This document shows positions 11,640 to 40,643 of a stretch of 64,000 nucleotides of DNA, in pieces (position 1 is the stretch's first letter; each line of letters begins with the position of its first letter). The translations under genes and the position numbers were made by a program. The notes beneath the pieces were generated by a model. It had not been told where the DNA came from. It searched no databases and saw only the letters and a list, made by a program, of their open reading frames with translations. This DNA is from a virus: positions 1 to 64,000 of the IMG/VR virus record IMGVR_UViG_3300020558_000217; one strand, 5' to 3'.

Positions 11640-11900
11640 TCAACTCTTAATATAAGCATCCATCTTTTTTATGAACGCATCAATATTTTTTACTCGATCA
11701 GCGCCATTCCATTTAATAATATCTTTATCAGGATTCTTTTTTAGATTTAATAGAAGTGGCATAATCATCTTACGTAGACCCTCTAGTTTTACTTGAGTAT
11801 TTCCTAGCTGATCTTGTAATTCTAACTCTCCTGCTTTCAATTCGTCTTCTGAAGTAAAACCGAAGTCGAATTCGAAATCATTGTCCTCTAGTTCTGTCAT
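11640..11900 (-). CDS. Hypothetical protein downstream of gp43
   Basis: DFGF...PLLLNLKKNPDK..IKW; overlaps the gp43 stop. Confidence 0.65.
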   Translation of the reverse strand: MTELEDNDFEFDFGFTSEDELKAGELELQDQLGNTQVKLEGLRKMIMPLLLNLKKNPDKDIIKWNGADRVKNIDAFIKKMDAYIKS

Positions 11901-14368
11901 GAGAAAAAGTCCTCTAGTGTTGATTTTTGTTCTGTTGACCAGTTAATAACATCAGTGATGGAATTAAGCGGTTCCAAGAACGATTTGTTGAATTGTGTCT
12001 CGCGATCAATATACTTATCTAGATGAATCAATTCCTTTGGAAGTTCGTCAGGAACTGCAATTACTGATTCTTGGAGAGGATTAGGTGTCTTCAAATAAGC
12101 AAATCTAATTTTATCACCATCTGAAATTCTAGGAACATTTTTCAATTTATTCTTATCTAGAATGTGATTGAATATCAATGCGCCTTTGACGTGAATTGGC
12201 GTTCCCTTCTTATAAACTATAGACTTGTCAATATATTTGTACATTCCTTTCACACCACGTGGAAAGGCAACATCCTCAAAAGGCAATGTTAGAAACTCTT
12301 CACGAAACTGCTTAATAAACTCATGAAGCTCTTCTTGAGTGCCATTCATAATTATCGAGAGACATCTTTTAATGTTTTCTCGACACGCCTTCGGAGTGCT
12401 CGAACGTACCGCCTCAATACCCTGGAGTTTGAGTTTGGGTTCAGCATATTGTACGCCTTCAACATTCCAAGCGTTGAGGATATACATTTTCTTGCCACGC
12501 CAAATACCTTTGTTCGCAATTGTTTCCCTCTTCATTTTCATCTTTTGTTGATAGGAGTTCATATAAACCGCAAGTTCATCATAACATCTATCAAGATAAG
12601 GTTGTATCTTTTGTTCGCAGAATTGATCAATCGCATCAACAATTTTCAATTCATCATTAGTATCTAGGTGTGCTACTAGAGCATCCATTTCAACATAGAT
12701 AGAATCAGTATCTGATGCAATAACATAATCAACTTTATCAGTTTTCAATAGCTTATTGATAAATTCGTTTACCTTACGTTCAATCCAACGAATGGATAAC
12801 TGACCGGACATAGTAATTGCTTCGGAATGATCGAAACTGAACCAACGAAAGAACTGATTCGCCAACGCACCGTAAGCTGAGTTTAGCTGAATCTTTTTGG
12901 CCATCTGCATATTATGATAACGAGCAACTAACTTCTCATCTTCTGAGTTAGGATTTTTCTCATAACGCTGCTTGGCTTCGATCATTAATTTCTTATACTT
13001 GGTACGGTCATTATACATACGCTCCATCAATGCAGGTAAGAAACCCTGATGATCTTTGCGATACAAACAGCCATTGGCTGCATGTGAATATTCTTTATTG
13101 AACTTATCAACCTCAAAAGTGCCACGTAACAATTCATCAACTGAAGGAAAAGGAATTTTAGTTACGAATGTTTCTGGGCTGATATTATATTGCATAATAA
13201 GATGAGGATACAGGCTGTTCAAATCAAAAGAAACAACCCATTTACTCAAACCAATCTTAGGTTCCTTAACATGACCGCCAATCAAAGAACCTTCCATAAG
13301 TTGTTTTCTCAAAGAAGGAATAACGATATTCTTTTCTAGGAGATAGTTATGAATAATAATATCCCATGGTCGCACAGTTGTCATAACATCAGGGTAGTTA
13401 ACCTTAGCATCATATGACAACGCCATAGTTTGTTCGAGAAACTTTAACTTATCATCTAAACGATCAACCAGAACACAATCGTGAATATTATACTCGATAA
13501 ACTTTTGGAAGTTGTTCTTATATAGTTCCAAAAGATTACCATATTCTGAATAGTCGATTTTCTTTTCGCCGAGTTCAACTTGTGCAATAAAGTCCAGTTT
13601 ATAGGATTCTTGATTGCCAAACATAAATTTACGATATAGTTGGTAATAATCAAGAACGGATATTCCAGCAGGATTATAAGACTGGTTTTCCTTTCCTCGA
13701 AACTCAACAATCTTTTCATCGAGAATGCGCCATGGCGATAAGCGTTTAGCTTCTCTTTCATTAAAAAGATTTTTAATACGATTAACAGTGTACGGTATAT
13801 CAAAGAACTCAATATTCCAACCTGTTATTATGTCTAGATCTAGCCCTTCCCAACATTCGAGAAACTGTTGAATAAGTTGGTATTCGTCTTTGCACTGGAT
13901 GTAATGTGTATTTGGGTCGTCGCTGTTAAACTCTCCGCAACCAAATACAAAGTTACGATTGCGACTACGCAAAGTAATTGCGGTAATTGGCTTATCAGCT
14001 TTTTGAATATCTGGGAAACCTTCATCGGCAGCACACTCAATATCTATTGTTGCAACGTTAACAAGTTTAGGATCGTAATCGATATCGCCCTTGAATATGT
14101 CAAAAATATACAAGTAAGGAAACGTCGTTAGACCATAAATTTCCATATTAGAAACCTGGTCATAACGACTGATAAAATCCCTAGCTTCAGTGATTGAGTC
14201 GAACTCTAGTTTCTCTACTGGTTTACCATCAAGAGTTTTATATTTACCATTCTGCTTTGCAATAAACAAATATGGTTTGTAATTTACAACATCAGTATAT
14301 CTTAAACCTTTATCAAAACCTCGCACATACATGCGATTTCCACGTTGAAATACATTTGTATAAAACAT
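11897..14368 (-). CDS. 43: Family B DNA polymerase (gp43)
   Basis: DIEC exonuclease I, SFDLNSLYPH, KIQLNSAYG, ASDTDS. Confidence 0.97.
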   Translation of the reverse strand: MFYTNVFQRGNRMYVRGFDKGLRYTDVVNYKPYLFIAKQNGKYKTLDGKPVEKLEFDSITEARDFISRYDQVSNMEIYGLTTFPYLYIFDIFKGDIDYDPKLVNVATIDIECAADEGFPDIQKADKPITAITLRSRNRNFVFGCGEFNSDDPNTHYIQCKDEYQLIQQFLECWEGLDLDIITGWNIEFFDIPYTVNRIKNLFNEREAKRLSPWRILDEKIVEFRGKENQSYNPAGISVLDYYQLYRKFMFGNQESYKLDFIAQVELGEKKIDYSEYGNLLELYKNNFQKFIEYNIHDCVLVDRLDDKLKFLEQTMALSYDAKVNYPDVMTTVRPWDIIIHNYLLEKNIVIPSLRKQLMEGSLIGGHVKEPKIGLSKWVVSFDLNSLYPHLIMQYNISPETFVTKIPFPSVDELLRGTFEVDKFNKEYSHAANGCLYRKDHQGFLPALMERMYNDRTKYKKLMIEAKQRYEKNPNSEDEKLVARYHNMQMAKKIQLNSAYGALANQFFRWFSFDHSEAITMSGQLSIRWIERKVNEFINKLLKTDKVDYVIASDTDSIYVEMDALVAHLDTNDELKIVDAIDQFCEQKIQPYLDRCYDELAVYMNSYQQKMKMKRETIANKGIWRGKKMYILNAWNVEGVQYAEPKLKLQGIEAVRSSTPKACRENIKRCLSIIMNGTQEELHEFIKQFREEFLTLPFEDVAFPRGVKGMYKYIDKSIVYKKGTPIHVKGALIFNHILDKNKLKNVPRISDGDKIRFAYLKTPNPLQESVIAVPDELPKELIHLDKYIDRETQFNKSFLEPLNSITDVINWSTEQKSTLEDFFS

Positions 14369-14424: not shown

Positions 14425-14454
14425 ATAAAAAGCTGAGGGAATCAATCCCTCAGC
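14425..14454 (-). terminator. Terminator after ftsH
   Basis: GCTGAGGGA/TCCCTCAGC inverted repeat with T-run on minus strand. Confidence 0.7.
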
Positions 14455-16232
14455 GGCACCTTTCCATCTAACAGATCTAGAATTTCTTGACCTGATAGTG
14501 TTTCGTATTCAAGCAAACCCTTAGCAAGAGTGTCTAACTGCTTTCTCTTTTTAGTTAGAATACCCTTGGCAGTAGCATATGCAGTATCAATAATTTTCTT
14601 TACTTCAAGATCAATAAGTCGCTGAGTTTCTTCAGAAACCTTTGGTCCATGAAACACATCTGAATTAGGTTCAGTATATGCTACATTACCTAATGGCGAA
14701 AATCCATACTGAGTAACCATAGCACGAGCGATCTTTGATGCCTGTTGAATATCAGCAGCTGCGCCAGAAGTAACATTCTCCTCGCCAAAAACTAACTCTT
14801 CTGCTGCACGGCCACCCATTGCCATTGCAAGATAAGCAATCATTTCCTTATAAGACTGAGAAATCTGATCGCGTTCTGGTAGAGACTGAACCATACCTAA
14901 CGCACGTCCACGAGGAATAATTGTTGCCTTATGAATAGGAACAGAACCTTCCATGTTCAGAGAAACAAGAGCATGTCCGCCTTCATGATAAGCAGTCATT
15001 TTCTTTTCTTCTTCAGACATAAGAAGAGATCTACGTTCTGCGCCCATAAGAATCTTGTCACGAGCATCATCAAATTCTTTTGCTGTAACAATTCTCTTAG
15101 AACGGCGAGCAGCGAGCAATGCTGCTTCATTCACAAGATTGGCCAGATCAGCGCCAGAGAAACCTGGTGTTCCCTTAGCAACAGTTCTAAGATCAACATC
15201 TGCTCCTAGTGGAACTGCTCTACTATGAACCTTTAGAATTTTCTCGCGCCCAACAATATCTGGATTAGATACAGTAACTTGTCGATCAAAACGGCCAGGA
15301 CGAAGCAAGGCAGGATCAAGCACATCCACACGATTTGTCGCAGCGATGATGATGATACCTTCGTTGTCATTAAAGCCATCCATTTCTACTAGTAGAGCGT
15401 TTAAAGTCTGCTCACGTTCATCGTTACCGCCACTAATGCCAGCATTACGATTACGTCCAACAGCATCGATTTCATCAATGAAAATAATGCAAGGAGCATT
15501 CTTCTTTGCCTGTTCAAACATATCACGCACACGAGATGCGCCAACGCCGACAAACATTTCTACGAAGTCAGATCCAGAAAGATGGAAGAAAGGAACACCA
15601 GCTTCACCAGCTACTGCTTTAGCGAGCAGAGTTTTACCAGTTCCTGGAGGACCAACAAGTAGAACGCCCTTGGGAATTTTACCGCCAACTGCTTGGAACT
15701 TATGTGGTGCTGCTAGAAATTCTACAACTTCTTCTAGATCTTCTTTTGCTTCATCTACACCAGCAACGTCATCGAACTTGACATTGATTTCTTCCTCAGA
15801 AAGCATCTTTGCTTTAGACTTGCCCATAGACAATGGACCACGTCCACCAATTCCAGAAGTTCTTCTTGATAACCAAATCCAAATACTAAAGAACAAAAGA
15901 ACAGGTAGTAGATTAATTGCTAGATTAGTGAAGAATCCTGTTTCTTCTGGTGGAGTTGCTGATACTTGTAACTTCTTACCTTTGATCTGTTCCATAAAAT
16001 TACCGACTGATGGAACATATGTACTAAATGTCCTGTTGTCAACAAAATGACCAGTAACTTGATTTCCTGCAATAGTGAGATCATGGACTCTTCCTTCATC
16101 GATTTGAGTAACAAGCTCGCTAAACCCAATTTCTCTTGAGTATGTTTTGTGAGAACTTTCATTCCACATAGAATATAGAAAAATTCCTGTTAATACAAAC
16201 AACACCCAAGGAGTAATTTTTCTCCAATCCAT
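14442..16232 (-). CDS. ftsH: ATP-dependent zinc metalloprotease FtsH
   Basis: Two TM helices, [27 protein letters not shown]. Confidence 0.97.
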
Positions 16233-16287
16233 AATACTATCCTTCTATTATGCCGCACAATCAATTATATAGTTTTTTAGTAAAAAG

Positions 16288-16953
16288 TCAAATTCTTGCT
16301 GCTTGAAAATGCATACCATCAGGACGGCGTTCCCAACGACCACCCCAAACCCAACCTTCTGCCTCAAACGCCTGAACGATTAGAGACTTTTCAGTGAAAG
16401 AGTGCTTATTGTATCCTGGCTTTTTACCAAGAGCATTCCAAGGTGCGGCAATGTCAATAGCGACACCAAAGGCATGAGTAGAAAGAGAAGAACCGCCACG
16501 CATGTTACGGATGTTCCAGGTGCCAGAAAAGACATGTAGTTGCTGTGCTTTGATCTTATCATAGTCTCTGCCATTCTCGTCCCACACATATGTTAGAACA
16601 CGAACAAGAGAATCGGCGCAGGACTTATTCATCCATGTTCTGGTAATCTTAATATCGTCCATCCACATGGTATAAGGTAGATTGACCTGAACCATGTGCT
16701 TTCTAAACGCTCCGCCGTAATCTGGTGTGCCGAACTTTGCACGAAGTTCGCGCTGTAGGGGCCATACGTTTTTCTTTAGTTTACCAGCGGTAGGAACCTT
16801 AGCGTCTGCTACTGTATTGATGACATCAACGAACTTTGTTTCGTCAGCTTCTTTAACTGCCACCTCAGTCGTATAAACTTTACCATCAAAAATAAATGTT
16901 TCTTTGCCAGCTTTTCTCGCATCAGCAAATGCTTGTTTGAATGTTTTAGCCAT
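16288..16953 (-). CDS. M15 family peptidoglycan peptidase (endolysin candidate)
   Basis: R.MRGG..LSTHAFGVAIDI...WGGRW...DGMHFQ. Confidence 0.85.
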   Translation of the reverse strand: MAKTFKQAFADARKAGKETFIFDGKVYTTEVAVKEADETKFVDVINTVADAKVPTAGKLKKNVWPLQRELRAKFGTPDYGGAFRKHMVQVNLPYTMWMDDIKITRTWMNKSCADSLVRVLTYVWDENGRDYDKIKAQQLHVFSGTWNIRNMRGGSSLSTHAFGVAIDIAAPWNALGKKPGYNKHSFTEKSLIVQAFEAEGWVWGGRWERRPDGMHFQAARI

Positions 16954-16969
16954 AATTAATCTCCTATGA

Positions 16970-17000
16970 TAAATGGGAGGACCGAAGCCCTCCCATATTT
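16970..17000 (-). terminator. Terminator after hsp20
   Basis: ATGGGAGG/CCTCCCAT hairpin. Confidence 0.65.
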
Positions 17001-17006
17001 AGAAGA

Positions 17007-17453
17007 TTATTTGATGTCTACCTTTTTAGTTTTCTTTTCTTCTGGAACAACATTCTCTAAGAAGATCTTTAACATACCATTAACATATTCAGCATTCTTC
17101 ACTTCGACTGTGTCAGCAAGAGTAAACTTGCGAGTAAATACACGATCAGCGATACCTTTGTACAGATACTGAACTGGGTTTGTCACGGGATCAACATCAT
17201 CTAAAGAGAATCCACCCTTTACAACAAGAGTGTTATTCGCGAGTTCAATGTCGAGATTGTGTTTTCCGAAACCAGCCACTGCGAGTTCAATAGTATAGTT
17301 ATTATCGTCCACTTTTACAATATTGTAGGGAGGCCAGTTAGTAGCTTTTGCATAAGATTCTTGAGCAGATGCTAGTGTTTTTAGCATACGATCTGCGCCA
17401 ACAAACCACTTGTCGATATTACCTGTGTTGAAAGAAAATACATCATTAGTCAT
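17007..17453 (-). CDS. hsp20: Small heat shock protein Hsp20 (IbpA-like)
   Basis: PPYNI, IELAVAGF, YLYKGIA.R.F.R.FTL, NGML.I. Confidence 0.95.
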   Translation of the reverse strand: MTNDVFSFNTGNIDKWFVGADRMLKTLASAQESYAKATNWPPYNIVKVDDNNYTIELAVAGFGKHNLDIELANNTLVVKGGFSLDDVDPVTNPVQYLYKGIADRVFTRKFTLADTVEVKNAEYVNGMLKIFLENVVPEEKKTKKVDIK

Positions 17454-17525
17454 CTTTATTCTCCTTTAGAGCGAGTATAGATTACGTATCCCTTACGGCG
17501 ATACAACATATTATATAATAGTTGT

Positions 17526-17551
17526 GAGGGGAAAGTCAAGCTCTCCCCTCA
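17526..17551 (-). terminator. Hairpin after pmoC, overlapping a putative hsp20 -35
   Basis: GAGGGGA/TCCCCTC inverted repeat. Confidence 0.55.
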
Positions 17552-17560
17552 ATTATTTTC

Positions 17561-18322
17561 TTATTCTGTTAGAAGTCTAACGCCTTCACGACCAACTAGA
17601 GCATGAACACGCCCTAGGATCTGTAGAACAACTCCAAATACACCCAATGCCATCCAGCCGAAGAACACGAAGCCCCAATGAAGAGGAGCGACAAATAGTT
17701 CTTCCATGAACCAGAAAGTATGACCCCACTCGTTGAGACCAACGTTTGGAATGATCATAAATGGTCCAATGGCAACAATCAAGAATGCTAGGCTGTATCC
17801 ATGTGAGAAGTATGGAATACGAGTGCGAGCATAAAAGAAAGCACCAACAGCAATGATTGAGTAAATTGGGTATGACATATAGAACTCAATGATATGACTT
17901 GGAGTAAAGTCAGTATCACGAATTACAGTCATGTGCCATGTTCCATCCTGTTCAGTGAAAAAAGATGCGCCCCAGTAAATGGCGACGGCATACACAACAA
18001 GCCACTGAACTAAAGTAACTAGACGGCGCATTTCCTCGCGAGGAGTTACGCTGTCGATGGCTCGATCTCTAGTCTTCCAAAGATAACCAGCAAGTGCTAG
18101 ACCTGATACTAGCTCAAGCGGAATCTCTGTCCAAAGAATAGACATCCAATATGTCTGAAACTCTGGAGCAAATGAATCAAGTCCGGCCCTCCAGCCATAA
18201 ACCTGTTCATAGATACGAACAATGAGATAGAATGTGTTTAATAGGCCAAGGCCAATCCACATACCACGGAGATCGACGACATCTGCCTTTTCTGCAACTG
18301 CAGTAGTAGTTACTGTACTCAT
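17561..18322 (-). CDS. pmoC: Particulate methane monooxygenase subunit C
   Basis: EQDGTWH, RDTDFTPSHIIEFY, NEWGHTFWFMEELFVAPLHWGFV; N-terminus VVDLRGMWIGL as in Methylocystis-type PmoC. Confidence 0.97.
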   Translation of the reverse strand: MSTVTTTAVAEKADVVDLRGMWIGLGLLNTFYLIVRIYEQVYGWRAGLDSFAPEFQTYWMSILWTEIPLELVSGLALAGYLWKTRDRAIDSVTPREEMRRLVTLVQWLVVYAVAIYWGASFFTEQDGTWHMTVIRDTDFTPSHIIEFYMSYPIYSIIAVGAFFYARTRIPYFSHGYSLAFLIVAIGPFMIIPNVGLNEWGHTFWFMEELFVAPLHWGFVFFGWMALGVFGVVLQILGRVHALVGREGVRLLTE

Positions 18323-18395
18323 GTATAATTCTCCATTGAGAAAAAAATCAAGTGGTCAGTTTCGCCTTGGTGACGGAAACCGCCACTCTTGAGTA

Positions 18396-18426
18396 TATTT
18401 ATACTATAACCCTATTTGAAAGTCAA
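18396..18426 (-). promoter_or_regulatory. Overlapping sigma70-like and T4 late promoter for pmoC
   Basis: TTGACT-N17-TATAAA; the -10 is part of TATAAATA. Confidence 0.6.
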
Positions 18427-18429
18427 ATA

Positions 18430-18660
18430 CTATTTTCTGAGATCACGATCAGTAGCATCTAACCAGTACTGTTTACCGTCTTTTGGCCAACCCCATGGAT
18501 TTTCTTTATAATTTGGTGGTTCGATGTCGTCATACTCTTCATGACGAATCTTATCTTTGTAATAATGACGGTAACGACGATGATCTTTTATTCTTCCTGG
18601 TTTATCGCTCGGTGCACTAGTAATACCAAAACCTGGATGTTTTTTATAACTTCTAGACAT
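18430..18660 (-). CDS. Small basic hypothetical protein
   Basis: MSRSYKK...WGWPKDGKQYW; GGAGG RBS. Confidence 0.6.
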   Translation of the reverse strand: MSRSYKKHPGFGITSAPSDKPGRIKDHRRYRHYYKDKIRHEEYDDIEPPNYKENPWGWPKDGKQYWLDATDRDLRK

Positions 18661-18672
18661 TAGATACCTCCA

Positions 18673-18894
18673 TTAATGAAGTTTCTTACCAAAAGTCTCC
18701 TTTGCAACCACATATATTGACATAGTGTATCTGTCCATAATAAAAATAGGAGTCATGTTAGCAGCCTTAAAATCTTCAGCTGCTTCTAAAACTATTCTGA
18801 TGCCAGATTCTTCGTCTTCAGGAATATAATCGACAGCCTGTCTCAATACATCTTCTGGAATTTGAATCATGTTTTCTAAATTAGGTTTCCTCAT
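18673..18894 (-). CDS. Hypothetical protein
   Basis: Tightly packed ORF in the minus-strand operon. Confidence 0.55.
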   Translation of the reverse strand: MRKPNLENMIQIPEDVLRQAVDYIPEDEESGIRIVLEAAEDFKAANMTPIFIMDRYTMSIYVVAKETFGKKLH

Positions 18895-19231
18895 TTTTAT
18901 CTTTCTTGAAATAAGTCATATATTGTGTAGCATAATCGACGAACGACTTATATCCAAAAAATGTTATATACATTATATTTCTATACCATTCATATACAGG
19001 ATTTCTAGCCAACAAGTCTGACTCTTTTATTTTCTTTCTTCTGGGTCTTTTCTTTAATAAAGACTTATCTTCTATCATAGTCTCAAAAAACTTTATTCTT
19101 CCCTCTATGTAAAGTTTACCCTTCTCCACTTCAGGATCGTTTTTCAAAAGTTTAGAAACTCTCCTTAGATGCTTTCGATTTCTCATTGAATTGTGGAGTT
19201 GTTCAAGTAAGATTTCGTCAAGTTCATTCAT
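18881..19231 (-). CDS. Hypothetical protein
   Basis: Probable start MNELDE coupled to the glycosyltransferase stop. Confidence 0.5.
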   Translation of the reverse strand: MNELDEILLEQLHNSMRNRKHLRRVSKLLKNDPEVEKGKLYIEGRIKFFETMIEDKSLLKKRPRRKKIKESDLLARNPVYEWYRNIMYITFFGYKSFVDYATQYMTYFKKDKNEET

Positions 19232-20226
19232 ACCAGATTTTCTACAAACTGATCGGTTGCTGCTTCCCATGAGAAATGCTTTGCTCTTGCTACTGCATCT
19301 TCTCGTTTCAATAGAAAAGCACCTGTGATGGCAACTTCTAGATTATCCTTTGATAGATAACCAGATTTCGTGTCAATGATATATCTGTTCACTTCATTGT
19401 CAAATGCTGCTACAGGCAAACCACATGCCATTCCTTCAAGCACAACAAGACCGAATGTATCTGTCATGGATGGCCATGCAAAGACATCTTGTACCTGTAA
19501 TGTTCTAGCGATTTCTTCTGGTGTTTTTCTACCCAAAAAATAGGCATCTGGATATTTTGCTTTGTATTCTTCTAACTGTGGACCATCACCAATAATAAAC
19601 TTTACGATACTTTCATTCTTTATACTCAGAAATGCTTCTAGGTTTTTCTCGGCTGATACTCTACCGACATAGATAGCCCGAATGACCTTTTCTACTTCCA
19701 TCTTCTTCCAGTTTGGATCGGGTTTGAAAAGATCGGTATCAACACCACGAGACCATAACTTTAGGTTTTTGATACCCAGTGTATCACAGTAATCAACCAT
19801 GGCGGGGGTAGGAACCATAACACAATCGCTGTTTCTATGGAACCAACGAAAATACCGACCAGTAATTCTTGGTGGTATATAAGCATGTTCATATAGATAA
19901 TCTGGATACTTAGTATGGAACGATGTGGTATAGCGTCGTTTATACTTCTTGCAATAATATCTAGCGGCAAGACCTATGCTTCCTTCTGTTGCTATGTGAA
20001 TGTGGTTCGCATTCTTCACATATTCATCAGCGATACCCATAGGCAAAAGTGGCATATAAATGCCCGTTGATGGTTGTAGTGGAACTGTCACCTTGAACAT
20101 ACCAGGATGGACAACTTTTACATCATAACCACGTTTCTCAAGATGCTTGATTGTCGTCTTTAGTGTAGTGACAACTCCATTGATTTGTGGTTCCCAAGCA
20201 TCGGTAAAAATTGTAATGTTTGTCAT
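19228..20226 (-). CDS. GT4 glycosyltransferase, Agt-like glycolipid synthase
   Basis: TDAWEPQINGVV, HIATEG.IG, TSFHT.YP.Y, WSRGVD, YVGRVSAEKNL, PS.TDTFGLV.LE.MACGLPV. Confidence 0.85.
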   Translation of the reverse strand: MTNITIFTDAWEPQINGVVTTLKTTIKHLEKRGYDVKVVHPGMFKVTVPLQPSTGIYMPLLPMGIADEYVKNANHIHIATEGSIGLAARYYCKKYKRRYTTSFHTKYPDYLYEHAYIPPRITGRYFRWFHRNSDCVMVPTPAMVDYCDTLGIKNLKLWSRGVDTDLFKPDPNWKKMEVEKVIRAIYVGRVSAEKNLEAFLSIKNESIVKFIIGDGPQLEEYKAKYPDAYFLGRKTPEEIARTLQVQDVFAWPSMTDTFGLVVLEGMACGLPVAAFDNEVNRYIIDTKSGYLSKDNLEVAITGAFLLKREDAVARAKHFSWEAATDQFVENLV

Positions 20227-20966
20227 CGTCTTATAATCTCAAACTTTCCATTATAGTGTTCAACAAGTGCGGTGCAGGATTCTACCCAATCGCCGCAGTT
20301 CATATACTCAACATCATCAAAAGAACATATATTAGCATGATGTATGTGACCGCAAACCACACCATCTACGCATCTCCTTTTGGCAGCATCGGCAACTACC
20401 TTTTCATAGTCACCAATAAAGTTTACTGCTTCCTTGACATTTTGTTTCGCCCATGCCGAAAGAGAGAAACCGTTGATGCCAAAATAATTATATATGTTCT
20501 GTAGATATCTGTTTAGATCAATCATTCTATCATACAACCAACCGCCGATAAGAGCAAGCCACTTGGCGTTTGTTGTAATCAGGTCAAACTGATCACCATG
20601 GATTACAAGATATCTCTTACCATTCTCTCCATTATGAATAGTTTCATTCACCAATTTGATATTACCCATTTCGGTGCCAGCATACTCACGAAGAAACTCG
20701 TCATGATTGCCAGTTACATAATAGACTTCTACTGATTTCTTTGATTGCTTTAGAAAGAACTGAATGACTTCGTTGTGCGCCTGAGGCCAATAGACTTTGT
20801 TTCGCATCATCCATCCGTCAATAATATCACCAACCAAGTAGTATCTATCGGCTTCGGTTTCTTTTAGAAACTCTAATAACTTTTCAGCATTAGAATATTT
20901 TGTACCCAAATGAACATCTGATATAAAGATAGCACGATACTTCTTTTTCTCTTTGTTCTTCAACAC
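20223..20966 (-). CDS. Metallophosphoesterase, PlcP-like phospholipase C (LpxH-like family)
   Basis: FISDVHLG, LVGDIIDGW, YWPQAHN, GNHDEFLR, HGDQFD, CGHIH, NCGDWVESCTALVE. Confidence 0.85.
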   Translation of the reverse strand: MLKNKEKKKYRAIFISDVHLGTKYSNAEKLLEFLKETEADRYYLVGDIIDGWMMRNKVYWPQAHNEVIQFFLKQSKKSVEVYYVTGNHDEFLREYAGTEMGNIKLVNETIHNGENGKRYLVIHGDQFDLITTNAKWLALIGGWLYDRMIDLNRYLQNIYNYFGINGFSLSAWAKQNVKEAVNFIGDYEKVVADAAKRRCVDGVVCGHIHHANICSFDDVEYMNCGDWVESCTALVEHYNGKFEIIRR

Positions 20967-20997
20967 CGCTCCTTTGGTTAGAAGGCAAGACTATTTA

Positions 20998-21363
20998 TCA
21001 TATCATGTCCATCGTAAAAATAGCACGAATGTATTTTTGTGGATCAAATTCAATCCTTCTACGAGCAAATACAACAAATCCAAGGTCATCTCCAGTCATT
21101 ACTTCTCTCATAGATTTGCCCGTCGTGTATACATCGTCGACAACTAATCGTAATGGAACTCCTGGTGTAATGTACTTTTCCAACGCTAAAGCCAATTTAA
21201 CGCCGCCACGAGGAATACCATAAACACTGCCAAAACGAGTACGCTCATGAATGATCCTTGCTAAACAATCCCAATCTCCATCAGTCAAAGCATCGCATTC
21301 AATTTTCCAATTTAACTCATGTCCAGCATGAGATATAAAGTTTCCTTCTTGAAATAAATTCAT
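20998..21363 (-). CDS. Minimal type I phosphoribosyltransferase
   Basis: GIPRGG and LVVDDVYTTGKSM PRPP-binding loop. Confidence 0.8.
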   Translation of the reverse strand: MNLFQEGNFISHAGHELNWKIECDALTDGDWDCLARIIHERTRFGSVYGIPRGGVKLALALEKYITPGVPLRLVVDDVYTTGKSMREVMTGDDLGFVVFARRRIEFDPQKYIRAIFTMDMI

Positions 21364-21626
21364 TCAATTACCTCTTCTTCAAACATTCTTCCTGGGAGTG
21401 TAGGTCCAGGCGCAGAAGCACTACCTGCCATGCTTCTAGCAATACCATATCCAGTATTGTATCCAGAAGTCGCTCCTTCGCTCCAGCCAGGATTGCTCCA
21501 TGAATATGCTGGAGTAGAAGAAGGAGGACCACCGCTCAAAGAATGATATGGTTGTGCGAAACTATTTGCTGCACTAGCAACCGTGGGGAATACCACCATT
21601 GAGATTATCATCAAAGATTTCATCAT
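21360..21626 (-). CDS. Hypothetical exported protein
   Basis: Signal peptide-like N-terminus ending ASA. Confidence 0.5.
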   Translation of the reverse strand: MMKSLMIISMVVFPTVASAANSFAQPYHSLSGGPPSSTPAYSWSNPGWSEGATSGYNTGYGIARSMAGSASAPGPTLPGRMFEEEVIE

Positions 21627-22413
21627 ACATTCTTTTTCCTTTTCTTTTTAAATAGATACCATTGTAGTAGAAAGAATCCTATAAATCTATTAACATAGTC
21701 ATTAAAAGTCAAATCATGTTTGTTAAGACTTTTGCGTAGTTTAGAATTTTCTTCCTCTAATCGTTCAATCGTATATGCTGCCTTTCTTGGAACAGAATGA
21801 CAATGGACGCTATTGTGTTTTTCAACCCAATTGGCCAGTTCATGTAATTGATTCACCAGTTCATCGGACATTTCTCAATCTCTTTTCAATTTCTAGATAT
21901 AATTCTAGATTAGGATATATAGAGCCAGAATATAACTGCCTGATTAGTTTTCCTGTAAATTTATTGTTTATACCACGAACTGTCTTGGCGAATAGTTTGA
22001 AATCATATCCATCAAACAAACTTCCAGTATAGATCATTTTTTGACCTTTCTAGTATAAATTTCTGGTGGTATCTTTTGTGCCACAACTTTCCATACACCA
22101 GTTACATTCTGTTCGGTTTCGACATAATTCGCCACTTCATCTACGGAAGTAAATGAAATAGCGAACTCGTTTCCACTCCTCTTGGAATGAACCACATATT
22201 TACAAGTATCTTCTTTATAGTCAAAGATCATGTCTCTTTCCATTCAAGCATGTTTTTCATATCATTGAGGCGCTGGTCTCTCATTGCTTCGTCTTTTTCA
22301 GATAGAACCTTTTCTAGAAGGCCAAAAAGGAATAGACAGTTCATCTTGTTTTCAACGTTTTCTTTTGGCACATCGTTGATTATAGCGTTTAGTTTTTCGT
22401 TCTGTAAAATCAT
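21623..22413 (-). CDS. Run of four small hypothetical ORFs (21623-21871, about 21861-22037, 22034-22243, 22228-22413)
   Basis: Start/stop-coupled ORFs on the operon strand. Confidence 0.5.
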
Positions 22414-24068
22414 AGTTCTGCCCTCATCATTGTATCCGAACCGAAACGGATACGCTTTAGTAGAAAACTCGTTTCTGGTAGAATGCGTTCCATAAAATAT
22501 TCTGCGGTATTGTGTCTGTCCTTATCGTCAGTAGCAAGACAGATACGAATATGTGCCATGCCAAGTAATACTAATCCAAACATTTTCATGTAGTCGTAGG
22601 AAGCGCCACCAGCATTATTAGGATTTTTCATGCCATTTTCTACCAACCATTCTGTTGCTTGCTTTAGTTCACTTACTGCCTGTGTCATTGGCTGAACAAT
22701 GTCATTGATCTGCTTATCGTAAGAACTGGTCAAGAATGCTTCGCTATCATTGAAGAACCTTGTAATAGCACGACCCATATCCTTTGGCAACTTACGACCA
22801 ATCAAGTCTAGTGCCTGAATGCCATTAGCGCCTTCATAGATTTGACAGATACGAGCGTCACGAACAATCTGCTCCATACCCCATTCTTTGATGTATCCAT
22901 GACCACCGAAGACCTGTTGCGCTTTTACAGCATTCTCAAAACCATAATCTGTTAGAACGCCTTTGAGAACTGGAGTCATTAGACCAAGACGATCCTGTGC
23001 TTCTTGTGATTTATCATCGCAAAGCATTGCCGCTTCTAGAACAAGAAGTCGTCCAGCTTCATTGATACATTTGATATCCATAAGCATACGGCGAACGTCA
23101 GGATGTTCTATGATAGCAACAGACTTACCTTTGGGATCTGTAATCTTGGCACTTTGAATACGATCTTTGGCATAAGCAAGAGCATTTTGATATGCCAACT
23201 CCGATTGCGATAGACCTTGAACAGCAACACCAAGGCGTGCCTCATTCATCATAATGAACATGGCATTTAGACCCTTGCATCGTTCACCAACAAGATAACC
23301 AATAGCACCATCATAGTTCATCACGCAAGTTGGCGAACCATGAATGCCCATCTTTTCTTCAATAGATCCACAAGACACATTATTTTGTTTCTCTCTCCAA
23401 AGTTTTGGGACCACAAACATACTAATGCCTTTGACGCCTTCTGGATCTCCCTCAATACGAGCAAGAACAAGATGAACGATATTATCTGCTAGATCATGCT
23501 CACCACATGAAATGAAAATCTTTTGGCCTGTGATATAAAATTCATCTTCTAAAAGAGCAGGAGTAGCCTTTGTCTTAATCAAACCAAGATCAGTTCCACA
23601 ATGCGGTTCTGTCAGGTTCATTGTGCCTGTCCATTCACCAGATGCCATCTTGGGAATGAAATGTTGCTTCTGTCCTTCTGTTGCAACTTCTAATAGTGCT
23701 TGAATATTTCCACGAGTAAGGCCGGGCAAAAGAGAGAAAGCTATATTAGACGAGGATACAAACTCGTTTACCGCAGCCGAAAGTGTATATGGTAGACCTT
23801 GGCCACCATATTGTTCAGGAACTGATAAACCAAGCCAACCACCTTCTTTGAATTTCTTCCACGGTTCATGGAAAACTGCTGGTACAATAACATCGTCAAA
23901 TACGCATCTTTCACAACCAAGTTTATCTCCAGACTGATTAGTAGGAGCAATAACTTCTTCGCATAGTTTTGCTGCTTCGGTTAGAATCGGCTCTGTAAGT
24001 TCATTGTCGAACTTTAGAACATCACGAAGAAGAAACGTTGTCGATACTACTGGTGCTGTGTATTTCAT
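22410..24068 (-). CDS. Acyl-CoA dehydrogenase
   Basis: GTMNLTEPHCGTDLG, GQKIFIS, EEKMGIHGSPTC, QVFGGHGYI, IYEGANGIQALDL. Confidence 0.95.
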   Translation of the reverse strand: MKYTAPVVSTTFLLRDVLKFDNELTEPILTEAAKLCEEVIAPTNQSGDKLGCERCVFDDVIVPAVFHEPWKKFKEGGWLGLSVPEQYGGQGLPYTLSAAVNEFVSSSNIAFSLLPGLTRGNIQALLEVATEGQKQHFIPKMASGEWTGTMNLTEPHCGTDLGLIKTKATPALLEDEFYITGQKIFISCGEHDLADNIVHLVLARIEGDPEGVKGISMFVVPKLWREKQNNVSCGSIEEKMGIHGSPTCVMNYDGAIGYLVGERCKGLNAMFIMMNEARLGVAVQGLSQSELAYQNALAYAKDRIQSAKITDPKGKSVAIIEHPDVRRMLMDIKCINEAGRLLVLEAAMLCDDKSQEAQDRLGLMTPVLKGVLTDYGFENAVKAQQVFGGHGYIKEWGMEQIVRDARICQIYEGANGIQALDLIGRKLPKDMGRAITRFFNDSEAFLTSSYDKQINDIVQPMTQAVSELKQATEWLVENGMKNPNNAGGASYDYMKMFGLVLLGMAHIRICLATDDKDRHNTAEYFMERILPETSFLLKRIRFGSDTMMRAEL

Positions 24069-25854: not shown

Positions 25855-26979
25855 TCATAGGTCACGCTTTCCTTTCCAAAAAGCAACGATAACAGGAAAA
25901 CGAAGTTTACCGTCTTCCGTTTTGTTCTGATACCTCACGGTAACGTCCGTGCCGATATAATCATTAGCATTATACAGCAAGTCCTTGAGCATGTCAAATG
26001 AGCCACGCACTCCCGAAAACTGTGTCGTTCCATCTTTCAAACGGATTTCCACACGCTTGGCAGCACCTGCCCAGTTACCTTTTCCTTCTTCGATGGAAAC
26101 GATTTCAAATTCCTCGTCCTCAAATTCCTTATGCTTGATAAGGTTCTTGGAACGCTTACCTTCATACAGCGAGTCAGGAACACGAAGCATCTGGCCTTCG
26201 TATCCAATTTCAAGATAATGACCAAGCATTGTTTTGAGGTCATGTTCGTCATCCACAACATGCACATCGACGGTTATTACAGGGGGATTTAAAAGACTTT
26301 CGCCGAACATTTGAACAATGAAATCCGACCGCTCATGGAAAGTTCCATCCATAATCACATCGTAGACATGATACTGGATCATCTGCTTAGACTCTTCCAA
26401 ATCAGCGGCAGTTGGCTTTGTCTTCCGTGCCAGTGAAATGATCTTTTCAAAGTTGTCTTTTAGATCGTGATTATACAGTTCACCATCCAGAACCACATCA
26501 GGATATTTCTGAAAGAATGGTTCTAATGCTTCACGAATATGCGGAGCAGAGATAATAGGCTTGCCATTGCGTGACTGCATACCATCTTTAGAAACGAGGC
26601 AGCGAACACCATCAAGTTTCGGCTGTGAATAATACGGGAACTTGTTATGCTTCTTGGCATCATACTTGTCGGCCAGCATACACTCATAGAACAAATCATC
26701 CTTCGACTTAGCAGCAGTAACGCTAGTATAATACTTGCCTTGAAACTGCTTCTTTACATAATGAGCATTTACTTCATTAGCAACCTGCATAGCAACATCG
26801 GTCGCATTAGCACGACCGACATTCTTTTCGGTAGGATACTGCCAGCCCGAAACTACAATCTTGCCACCATTGATACCAGAATGTGTCCGATACTTCTCGC
26901 TGTCATGTTCGATCCACCAAACACGGGTCTTACCTTTAGTGTCAATCTTGTATAGTTTCGGAAGGCTAATCATTACCAA
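25855..26979 (-). CDS. ATP-dependent DNA ligase
   Basis: QPKLDGVRC, LDGELY, YEGQMLR, KRSKNLIKHK, LRFP. Confidence 0.92.
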   Translation of the reverse strand: MVMISLPKLYKIDTKGKTRVWWIEHDSEKYRTHSGINGGKIVVSGWQYPTEKNVGRANATDVAMQVANEVNAHYVKKQFQGKYYTSVTAAKSKDDLFYECMLADKYDAKKHNKFPYYSQPKLDGVRCLVSKDGMQSRNGKPIISAPHIREALEPFFQKYPDVVLDGELYNHDLKDNFEKIISLARKTKPTAADLEESKQMIQYHVYDVIMDGTFHERSDFIVQMFGESLLNPPVITVDVHVVDDEHDLKTMLGHYLEIGYEGQMLRVPDSLYEGKRSKNLIKHKEFEDEEFEIVSIEEGKGNWAGAAKRVEIRLKDGTTQFSGVRGSFDMLKDLLYNANDYIGTDVTVRYQNKTEDGKLRFPVIVAFWKGKRDL

Positions 26980-34842: not shown

Positions 34843-35117
34843 TCTCTCCGAGTGCTGGCCCTTGATCCAGTGGCTCAGAGTTGGGTGGATTGTCAGTGAC
34901 TGGGTCGACGAGAGCCGACGATCCACCCATTATACTCTATTTTTAAAAAAAGTCAATATTTAAGTCGTTTACGTTCGTCCATCGTTGTCTCCGCGGAGCT
35001 CCAGGTGGCGTTTACGTAAACGACATTTTTTTAAAATATTTGGCGTTACAGCACAGATATCGCTTGCCTTTTCCCGAGAATAGGGTATACTGGTAATATG
35101 GTGATGGAGGATTAATC

Positions 35118-39630: not shown

Positions 39631-40608
39631 ATGGCTCACGAAATTGAATTTGTTGATGGTATCGCTCAAATGGCATATGCTGGGGCTGTTCCTTGGCATG
39701 GTCTAGGCGTAAAGGTTCCGGCTGATCTTACGCCGGAACAGATGCTCGAGGCTGCTGGTTTGGACTGGGTGGTGCAGAAGTTTCCGACTTTTGCTATTCT
39801 CGACGAAAATGATCCGGATAGCGTAATCGAGACAAAGCAGTCTGCTCTTGTTCGTATGAAGGATAAGAAGCTGCTCGATGTCGTCTCTGACGATTGGAAC
39901 CCTGTTCAGAACGCCGAGGCTTTCGACTTCTTCAACGAATTCGTTATGGCTGGCGATATGGAGATGCATACTGCTGGCTCTCTGAAGGGCGGACAGATCG
40001 TTTGGGGTCTTGCCAAGGTTAAGGAGTCATTTGAACTCTTTAAGGGCGATCAGATCGATTCCTATCTTCTGTTCTCTAATTTCCATAAGTATGGGTTTTC
40101 TACAGACGTTCGGTTCACTCCGATCCGTGTAGTTTGTAATAATACTCTTACCTTGTCTCTCAGCTCGTCGGTAGAACGGATGGCTAAGATTTCTCACCGT
40201 AAGCAGTTTAATCCTGCTAACGTAAAGGATATGCTTGGTATTGCTACCGATAAGCTGCAGAAGTATAAGGAGATGGCTCAGTTTCTTGGGTCTAAGAAGG
40301 CTAAGACCGAGTCAATTGTCGAATACTTTGAGCGTATCTTTCCGCTTGCTGGTGCGACTACCGAAGATAAGGCAGAAGGTAAGCGTTCGAAGAATGCCAA
40401 TATTGCTCTTGGTATTCTTGATACGCAGCCTGGTAGCGAGTATGCTCAGGGAAGCTGGTGGCAGCCGTTTAATGCTGTTACTTTTATGACCGATCATGTT
40501 CTCGGTCGTTCAGCTGACACTCGTCTCCAGTCTGCTTGGTATGGTTACAACAAGGGTCTAAAGACAAAGGCTCTTGAACTCGCTGTTGAGATGGCCGAAG
40601 CCGCTTGA
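39631..40608 (+). CDS. DUF932 family protein
   Basis: MAHEIE...PWHGLG, AGLDW.V, VQNAEAFDFF, TAGSLKGG, TPIRVVCNNTL. Confidence 0.85.
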   Translation: MAHEIEFVDGIAQMAYAGAVPWHGLGVKVPADLTPEQMLEAAGLDWVVQKFPTFAILDENDPDSVIETKQSALVRMKDKKLLDVVSDDWNPVQNAEAFDFFNEFVMAGDMEMHTAGSLKGGQIVWGLAKVKESFELFKGDQIDSYLLFSNFHKYGFSTDVRFTPIRVVCNNTLTLSLSSSVERMAKISHRKQFNPANVKDMLGIATDKLQKYKEMAQFLGSKKAKTESIVEYFERIFPLAGATTEDKAEGKRSKNANIALGILDTQPGSEYAQGSWWQPFNAVTFMTDHVLGRSADTRLQSAWYGYNKGLKTKALELAVEMAEAA

Positions 40609-40643
40609 CTTTTAATAAAAACTAAGTTATAATTCTATATAAC

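Follow-up and report, generated by a model that had tools for sequence, protein, structure and literature searches.

We analysed positions 1 to 64,000 of the virus record IMGVR_UViG_3300020558_000217 (hereafter the window, 64,000 nucleotides; the full record has 105.6 kb and is 62% complete according to CheckV), which stems from a T4-like lake phage of Methylocystis and carries genes for the protease FtsH and for PmoC, a subunit of pMMO, the methane monooxygenase of the particulate type. The left 27 kb of the window form a minus-strand block of T4-type replication genes, and the T4-like core genes within the window comprise a gp41-like helicase, UvsX, gp43, a ligase and baseplate wedge genes. 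Both ftsH and pmoC are located in a variable stretch bounded upstream by the DNA ligase gene (25855-26979, minus strand) and downstream by the backbone gene for the gp43-type family B DNA polymerase (11897-14368, minus strand; PF00136/PF03104, phrog_262 with 1036 bits), which directly follows ftsH. In the order of transcription from ligase to gp43, the stretch contains an acyl-CoA dehydrogenase gene, five small open reading frames (ORFs), an ORF of 121 amino acids (aa), a metallophosphoesterase gene, a gene for a family 4 glycosyltransferase (GT4), three small ORFs, pmoC, hsp20, an M15_4 peptidase gene and ftsH.

A preliminary description had read most of these genes as one co-oriented membrane-maintenance island that serves a PmoC repair cycle. 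Profile matches confirm that the ftsH, hsp20, pmoC, agt-like, plcP-like and acyl-CoA dehydrogenase genes upstream of gp43 are all real and lie on the minus strand. The list had missed the gene for a VanY-like, endolysin-type Peptidase_M15_4 of 221 aa (16288-16953, minus strand; PF13539, E 7e-17, phrog_17001), and the shared orientation is trivial, since every large gene from 25 to 26979 lies on the minus strand. The predicted host is a Methylocystis-like type II methanotroph, because the loci of our PmoC scan belong almost all to Methylocystaceae and Beijerinckiaceae, with up to 92% identity, and this agrees with the prediction made for the group (Chen 2020, PMC7674155).

The ftsH gene (14442-16232, minus strand) codes for an intact, membrane-anchored AAA+ zinc metalloprotease of 596 aa with M41, AAA, lid and FtsH_ext domains. 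The protein scores 810.7 bits against the equivalog profile TIGR01241 (cut-off 600 bits) and can be aligned with E. coli FtsH (7VHP) over residues 11-588. Hydrophobic runs at about residues 8-23 and 104-121, which make up the membrane anchor, flank the periplasmic FtsH_ext domain (PF06480, residues 9-93). Walker A, Walker B, the FVG pore loop, the second region of homology and the HEGGH zinc site are all present, and these motifs are retained in 42-45 of the 45 phage copies. A ratio of nonsynonymous to synonymous substitution rates (dN/dS) of 0.07-0.15 indicates purifying selection, which argues for a retained function and for nothing beyond it; ATP-dependent proteolysis of membrane proteins is the predicted activity. 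A supposed ftsH pseudogene in contig 3300025417_000120 (L031/L123/L196) was rejected, as what looked like an internal stop only ends the protein 16 residues earlier at its C-terminus.

The pmoC gene (17561-18322, minus strand) stands alone and is of the Methylocystis (alpha) type. Its product of 253 aa matches PF04896 with 362.5 bits and TIGR03078 with 336.6 bits (cut-off 280.6), and shares about 92% identity, over residues 5-253, with the PmoC chains of Methylocystis in 4PHZ/3RFR. The copper-site motifs EQDGTWH, PSH, NEWGH and PLH are the same as in the Methylocystis chains in the alignment and are invariant in ten phage PmoCs, the assignment of the copper ligands (Asp/His/His; Asn/His/His) being taken from published structures. 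Searches of the 105.6-kb, 62%-complete record gave no match to PmoA or PmoB and did not find the YccA/Bax-inhibitor family, and a tblastn search of INPHARED with PmoC gave no match. Phage PmoCs form one clade inside Methylocystis PmoC1, and their nearest cellular neighbours include orphan copies linked to ftsH; orphan and operonic host copies are too similar to be told apart as the source of the phage PmoC.

Distribution of the auxiliary genes among relatives

For comparison, 223 viral loci were gathered via PmoC, FtsH and gp43, and the window proteins were mapped onto them. Co-distribution was counted over 35 loci, dereplicated by gp43 sequence and placed on a gp43 tree, and near-complete genomes were scored by whole-record searches with positive controls. 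Neither pmoC nor ftsH is present in 19 of the 35 loci, while eight carry pmoC only, five both genes and three ftsH only. Both genes are limited to one of two subclades, and within it four independent contrasts show no coupling. At the level of near-complete genomes, pmoC occurs without ftsH in G001 (98% complete) and G002 (100%), ftsH without pmoC in G006 (94%), and both genes are present about 33 kb apart in G011 and G012 (100%). In a second phage clade, whose gp43 is about 45% identical, ftsH is located between gp47-like and gp46-like genes, 8-34 kb from pmoC. The preliminary description had set synteny across pmoC-phages as a test and had named an ftsH unlinked to pmoC in relatives as the outcome speaking against it; the independent gain and loss of the two genes and their distance in this second clade bring about that outcome in part. 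In G006, a 418-aa ORF about 2.6 kb downstream of ftsH (L132:14341-15597) matches the Druantia DruA family (PF14236, E 2e-21).

The backbone of the window's own clade consists invariantly of the 73-aa ORF, hsp20 and gp43, in this order, even where neither pmoC nor ftsH is present. In some phages pmoC has entered between hsp20 and the small ORFs; ftsH, placed directly before gp43, is carried by another subset that overlaps with the first; and the M15 gene, which sits between hsp20 and ftsH in the window, is found in yet another subset and is absent from other relatives. The ftsH insertion sites differ between the two clades and lie next to DNA-metabolism genes in each. The plcP-agt pair and the dehydrogenase gene occur with or without pmoC and ftsH, and the full gene set in the order of the window is common only to the closest contigs (L002, partly L001/L003). 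The hsp20 gene, listed before as a part of the island, occurs in every relative, also in those that lack both pmoC and ftsH.

Loss of pmoC has left traces at two junctions. In L097 (2380-2900; compare window 17380-18720), only the first ~125 and the last ~65 nucleotides of pmoC are left behind an intact promoter and leader, and this deletion remnant adjoins intact hsp20, M15 and ftsH genes. L087 has a clean junction with a hybrid promoter, made up of the pmoC -35 element and the hsp20 -10 element, and the pmoC cassette is missing exactly between the two promoter regions. Apart from the missing pmoC, the neighbourhood, ftsH included, is the same in the nearest relatives of the window, whose gp43 is 91-93% identical. 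Together, the stubs of L097, the hybrid promoter of L087 and the gene content of these nearest relatives show that pmoC was lost by deletion between flanking promoter regions while ftsH stayed.

The transcription signals point in the same direction. The window holds four copies of the pattern TTGACTT-N14-18-TATAAT, where 0.05 would be expected; two lie further away (34929-34956, minus strand; 40605-40633, plus strand) and two directly before ftsH and hsp20. The former of these two is a sigma-70-type promoter (TTGACTT-N-TATAAT; 16264-16291, minus strand), and so is the latter (17510-17539, minus strand), which has its -35 element in the loop of a GAGGGGA/TCCCCTC stem and marks the downstream edge of the pmoC cassette. 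We take this arrangement, together with the L087 junction, to resemble the promoter-stem-loop cassettes by which T4-type phages shuffle their genes. The pmoC promoter region (18392-18420, minus strand) combines a TTGACT -35 element with the T4-late-type box TATAAATA (18396-18403), and the -35 type is thereby shared by pmoC, hsp20 and ftsH. A terminator-like hairpin with a T-run (14432-14454, minus strand; 9-bp stem with six GC pairs) overlaps the ftsH stop. As the predicted promoters are separate and the hairpin closes ftsH, the three genes are predicted to be separate transcription units of a similar promoter class.

Co-occurrence together with kept linkage across relatives, by which we would recognise a co-inherited module, is not what we found. 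The “island” is a description of position and not a unit, because its pieces vary independently outside the closest relatives. The idea of one co-inherited membrane island had to be given up: pmoC and ftsH were gained and lost independently and have their own predicted promoters, and hsp20 belongs to the backbone.

Origin of the phage FtsH and its host counterpart

FtsH identities were sampled over full-length matches from Methylocystaceae, 50 other Rhizobiales and 60 other Alphaproteobacteria; the unpublished genome G057 contributes a single row to the alphaproteobacterial range and nothing to the trees. Identity of the phage FtsH is 66-68% with Methylocystaceae copies, 56-65% with those of other Rhizobiales, 54-62% with those of other Alphaproteobacteria and 54% with Salmonella FtsH. 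In the trees, the phage copies form one clade (support 100) nested in a Methylocystaceae clade (100). A first tree with distant outgroups only, in which all cellular copies stood together, was superseded by these trees with their Rhizobiales and Alphaproteobacteria sampling. Tree topology and identities thus show a Methylocystaceae origin of the phage FtsH at the sequence level. It groups with the Methylocystis paralogue that is linked to pmoC, with a Shimodaira-Hasegawa-like approximate likelihood ratio test (SH-aLRT) value of 99 under LG+G4 and support of 100/100 under LG+C20 with a careful search. The host paralogues differ in the N-terminal membrane/periplasmic part, where they share 55-64% identity compared with 92-95% elsewhere. 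As regards a capture of both genes in one block, identity to the respective host protein is about 90% for phage PmoC and about 67% for phage FtsH.

An adjacency of ftsH and orphan pmoC had been noted in two strains, and a role in pMMO quality control was speculated (Dam 2013, PMC3794950). Our PmoC-alignment scan of species-representative genomes yielded 80 loci, in which seven of 30 well-flanked orphan pmoC genes, compared with none of 32 pmoCAB operons, have an ftsH on the same strand no more than 1.5 kb away (Fisher p 0.004). Four more cases were seen on short flanks, one of the four next to an operon. Methylocystis has its ftsH upstream of pmoC, Methylocapsa and Methylocella have theirs downstream, and the FtsH tree holds at least three separate pmoC-linked lineages or arrangements. 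The proposed association of FtsH and PmoC gains support from the hosts, where ftsH is found beside orphan pmoC, and from the phage FtsH, which groups with that paralogue; within the phages, the two genes are not co-inherited. In Methylocystis sp. H62 (L258:10-2475), ftsH is located 340 bp upstream of pmoC, followed by pmoA, on a short flank, and this is the only operon-linked case seen. In Methylocystis sp. JAN1 (L227:11000-11629), a gene for a DUF1269/glycine-zipper membrane protein lies downstream of the ftsH-pmoC pair and an autoinducer synthase gene upstream.

A parallel exists on the gamma side. The 259-kb genome G082 (IMGVR_UViG_3300001580_000005) carries a Methylococcus-type PmoC, a gamma-type FtsH of 593 aa (L350:301-2082) and a plcP-like gene, dispersed across the genome. 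Its FtsH is 57% identical to Salmonella FtsH and only 51% to the window FtsH; it is one of a family of proteins of ~593 aa, of which some are encoded on contigs of 128-353 kb and whose nearest named cellular relatives are Methylococcaceae and Methylogaea (61-63%). Judged from these relationships, alpha-type and gamma-type pmoC phages each appear to carry an ftsH of their own host type, acquired independently. The G082 protein shares 64% identity with a 600-aa FtsH labelled “Candidatus Nitrosotenuis sp.” (P0052), whose contig of 219.5 kb probably stems from a phage and was put into the bin of an archaeon. As a precedent for a phage FtsH, “Microcystis phage MaAM05” was rejected, since this part of the record looks bacterial, with glgX, proS and lepA around the ftsH gene (L320, MW495066.1 198401-205897). 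Other FtsH matches from phage collections with 45-54% identity (“phage” records of Salmonella, Listeria, Staphylococcus, Enterococcus etc.) are short unannotated fragments or bacterial contigs.

Further genes of the stretch

The hsp20 gene (17007-17453, minus strand) codes for an IbpA-like small heat-shock protein (PF00011, phrog_432). Upstream of pmoC lie three small ORFs of 76, 73 and 129 aa without family (18430-19270, minus strand), of which the 73-aa ORF is the conserved backbone ORF upstream of hsp20. They are preceded by the genes for the agt-like GT4 glycosyltransferase (19228-20226, minus strand; PF13439/PF00534) and the plcP-like metallophosphoesterase (20223-20966, minus strand; PF00149), which overlap by 4 bp. 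A plcP-agt arrangement makes glucuronosyl-diacylglycerol under phosphate limitation in Methylosinus trichosporium OB3b (PMC9239053). Our comparison covered five Methylocystaceae genomes and not the OB3b proteins themselves; to the single adjacent pair of the same order in these genomes, the phage plcP is 51-54% and the phage agt 36-39% identical. Among five near-complete or large records tested, plcP was found in G001 and G082 only. The phage pair would convert phospholipid to glycolipid and thereby free phosphate; with it, the repertoire of methanotroph phages would include phosphate-sparing lipid remodelling.

The naming of one gene as a phosphoribosyltransferase could not be confirmed. It is a 121-aa ORF (20998-21363, minus strand) with a motif resembling the binding loop for phosphoribosyl pyrophosphate (PRPP), LRLVVDDVYTTGKS, and 86-92% conservation in relatives. 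Its match to Pribosyltran (PF00156) is below threshold (E 0.016, 14.9 bits; cut-off 26.3) and restricted to the motif region, the ORF is short for the family, PHROGs and NCBIfam gave no match, and the AlphaFold model is unusable (predicted local distance difference test, pLDDT, 44). What can be said is that an ORF too short for a normal phosphoribosyltransferase contains the canonical PRPP-loop motif VVDDVYTTGKS and is more conserved than its neighbours. Five overlapping small ORFs of 88, 82, 58, 69 and 61 aa follow upstream (21360-22413, minus strand), again without family; in total, nine small ORFs without family in the stretch are absent from the preliminary description.

The host-like acyl-CoA dehydrogenase (22410-24068, minus strand; 552 aa, C-terminal PF12806 domain) is 58-62% identical to the product of a Methylocystaceae gene. 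In both phage clades it is found 0.6-5 kb upstream of pmoC (L026, L029, L043, L050, L051, L017, L041), which makes it a steadier neighbour of pmoC than ftsH across clades with only 45% identical gp43, and extends a remark made earlier (Chen 2020, PMC7674155). In a host metagenome-assembled genome (L251), a 54%-identical dehydrogenase homologue lies 5 kb from a pmoCAB operon.

Function of the phage FtsH and comparison with known systems

Our preferred reading, to which we give a probability of roughly 0.55, is that the ligase-gp43 stretch represents a plastic region in which host-derived cassettes gathered singly, without a co-inherited operon, and that FtsH would have a quality-control role with pMMO clients. 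pmoC, ftsH, plcP-agt and the acyl-CoA dehydrogenase gene would have been added one cassette at a time between the backbone genes (73-aa ORF, hsp20, gp43), and the phage FtsH would descend from the extra host ftsH copy beside orphan pmoC genes. During infection it may be the protease responsible for quality control of membrane proteins in the intracytoplasmic membranes, its most likely clients being pMMO subunits, above all PmoC, that are damaged or have not been assembled. It could work with phage or host PmoC and would be dispensable where the host copy suffices. A role in servicing pMMO/PmoC is therefore best described as plausible and facultative, and pMMO/PmoC quality control is our best single guess for the phage FtsH, to which the order of genes in the hosts, the origin of phage ftsH and the parallel on the gamma side all point. 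Judged by the gene content of their genomes, these phages do not require a PmoC repair cycle driven by the phage FtsH, and what stands behind such a cycle is a genomic association.

Several observations weigh against this reading, which is itself built from genomes and phylogeny. Half of the near-complete alpha-type pmoC phages examined do without ftsH. Pseudomonas phages of the PA5oct/MIJ3 group, whose hosts are no methanotrophs, also carry ftsH (PMC6892783), so that a phage ftsH need not concern pMMO and is not exclusive to methanotroph phages. The signal for the grouping with the pmoC-linked paralogue comes from the fast-evolving N-terminal 130 residues (43% versus 38-40% identity), where long-branch attraction is possible; the cytosolic residues 131-596 put the phage clade beside, and outside, all Methylocystaceae copies, the approximately unbiased (AU) test does not reject a tree with all cellular copies together (p 0.19), and strict signature columns, two versus one, are uninformative. 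Because of this N-terminal-only signal, the AU result and the few signature columns, we rate descent from the pmoC-linked host paralogue as likely and no higher. Finally, the host adjacency counts include orthologous loci, and the Fisher p overstates their independence.

Much of this can also be accommodated if the phage FtsH is a general proteostasis or host-takeover protease with no specific tie to pMMO, its nearness to pmoC being an accident of a shared insertion hot spot. Its tasks might then be membrane upkeep, or the degradation of regulators (sigma-32, LpxC) or defence proteins, as maybe in other large phages. The ftsH genes of the PA5oct/MIJ3 jumbo phages (PMC6892783), the independent distribution of ftsH and pmoC, the clade-specific insertion sites next to DNA-metabolism genes, the AU result and the cytosolic 80% of FtsH, for which the pmoC-linked paralogue is not a nearer match than the other copies, all fit such a protease. 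We nevertheless regard it as a possibility of the doubtful kind, which leaves unexplained why host ftsH is repeatedly placed beside orphan and not operonic pmoC, why the N-terminal membrane/periplasmic part groups with the pmoC-linked copy, and why both alpha- and gamma-type pmoC phages hold an ftsH of their own host type. At the other extreme, the whole 10-kb island could act as one module in a D1-like cycle, in which FtsH extracts damaged PmoC, phage PmoC replaces it, Hsp20 chaperones, and plcP-agt and the dehydrogenase recycle lipid. The genes are indeed real, intact and co-oriented in the window phage and in L002, pmoC, hsp20 and ftsH share their -35 promoter type, the hosts link ftsH to orphan pmoC, and the phage FtsH groups with that ftsH paralogue of the hosts. 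Against such a module stand the near-complete genomes with only pmoC or only ftsH, the distant ftsH of the second clade between gp47- and gp46-like genes, the M15 peptidase gene between hsp20 and ftsH, the free occurrence of plcP-agt and dehydrogenase, and hsp20, which persists in relatives with neither gene and was judged not to be pmoC-specific (PMC7674155); with the synteny test weakening it further, we consider it improbable. A more specific variant, which we hold to be unlikely, is a PmoC exchange cycle native to Methylocystaceae, in which an FtsH paralogue specialised in its membrane/periplasmic domain would remove damaged or unassembled PmoC and orphan pmoC would supply the new copy, the phages having captured both halves, separately in alpha and gamma. 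If true, these would be the first phages known to encode a replaceable core subunit plus the protease clearing it.

The role of orphan pmoC/amoC in methane and ammonia oxidisers is a long-standing question, and so is that of phage pmoC. With the host linkage, a long-maintained phage ftsH of that lineage and the gamma-type parallel, the speculation of 2013 becomes a hypothesis concrete enough to be tested, namely that FtsH mediates the quality control or the turnover of the subunit with the pMMO active site. The auxiliary genes are separate cassettes in a recombination-prone region, which corrects the picture of a single island; therefore, co-occurrence should be counted per genome when viral effects on methane oxidation are estimated.

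Among known systems, the closest are the pmoC-phages of freshwater lakes, T4-like large phages with a stand-alone pmoC more than 90% identical to that of the host and an hsp20 judged not pmoC-specific (Chen 2020, PMC7674155). With their alpha/Methylocystis group, the window phage shares the stand-alone pmoC, the adjacent hsp20 and a nearby Methylocystis-like acyl-CoA dehydrogenase. The main text of that study and the supplements available to us make no mention of FtsH, metalloprotease, phosphoesterase, plcP or agt; new relative to it are the plcP-agt pair, the independent distribution of ftsH and the derivation of this gene from the host. The Methylocystis “FtsH1” beside a monocistronic pmoC (Dam 2013, PMC3794950) shares with our system the linkage of FtsH to an orphan pmoC, and in the best trees the phage FtsH groups with it. 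In contrast to the host arrangement, the phage genes are split by hsp20 and M15, have separate promoters and are evolutionarily separable, and the phage FtsH is only 66-68% identical overall and 43% in the N-terminal domain. The PlcP-Agt pair of type II methanotrophs such as OB3b (PMC9239053) has the metallophosphoesterase immediately upstream of the GT4 in the same order, whereas the phage-borne genes are translationally overlapped and known here from sequence, phosphate regulation being known only in the host system. FtsH of the Pseudomonas jumbo phages PA5oct/MIJ3 (PMC6892783) is likewise a full-length FtsH of a large virulent phage, but it is only ~38% identical, and these phages have no methanotroph host and no pmoC.

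A last comparison concerns psbA of cyanophages and the D1 protein. As with pmoC, the phage contributes a core membrane subunit that is labile, bears a metal site and belongs to the key energy enzyme of the host. In the cyanophage system, D1 turnover depends on an FtsH that is the host's, whereas the window phage encodes its own protease, and damage-driven turnover, which is established for D1, is by analogy supposed for PmoC.

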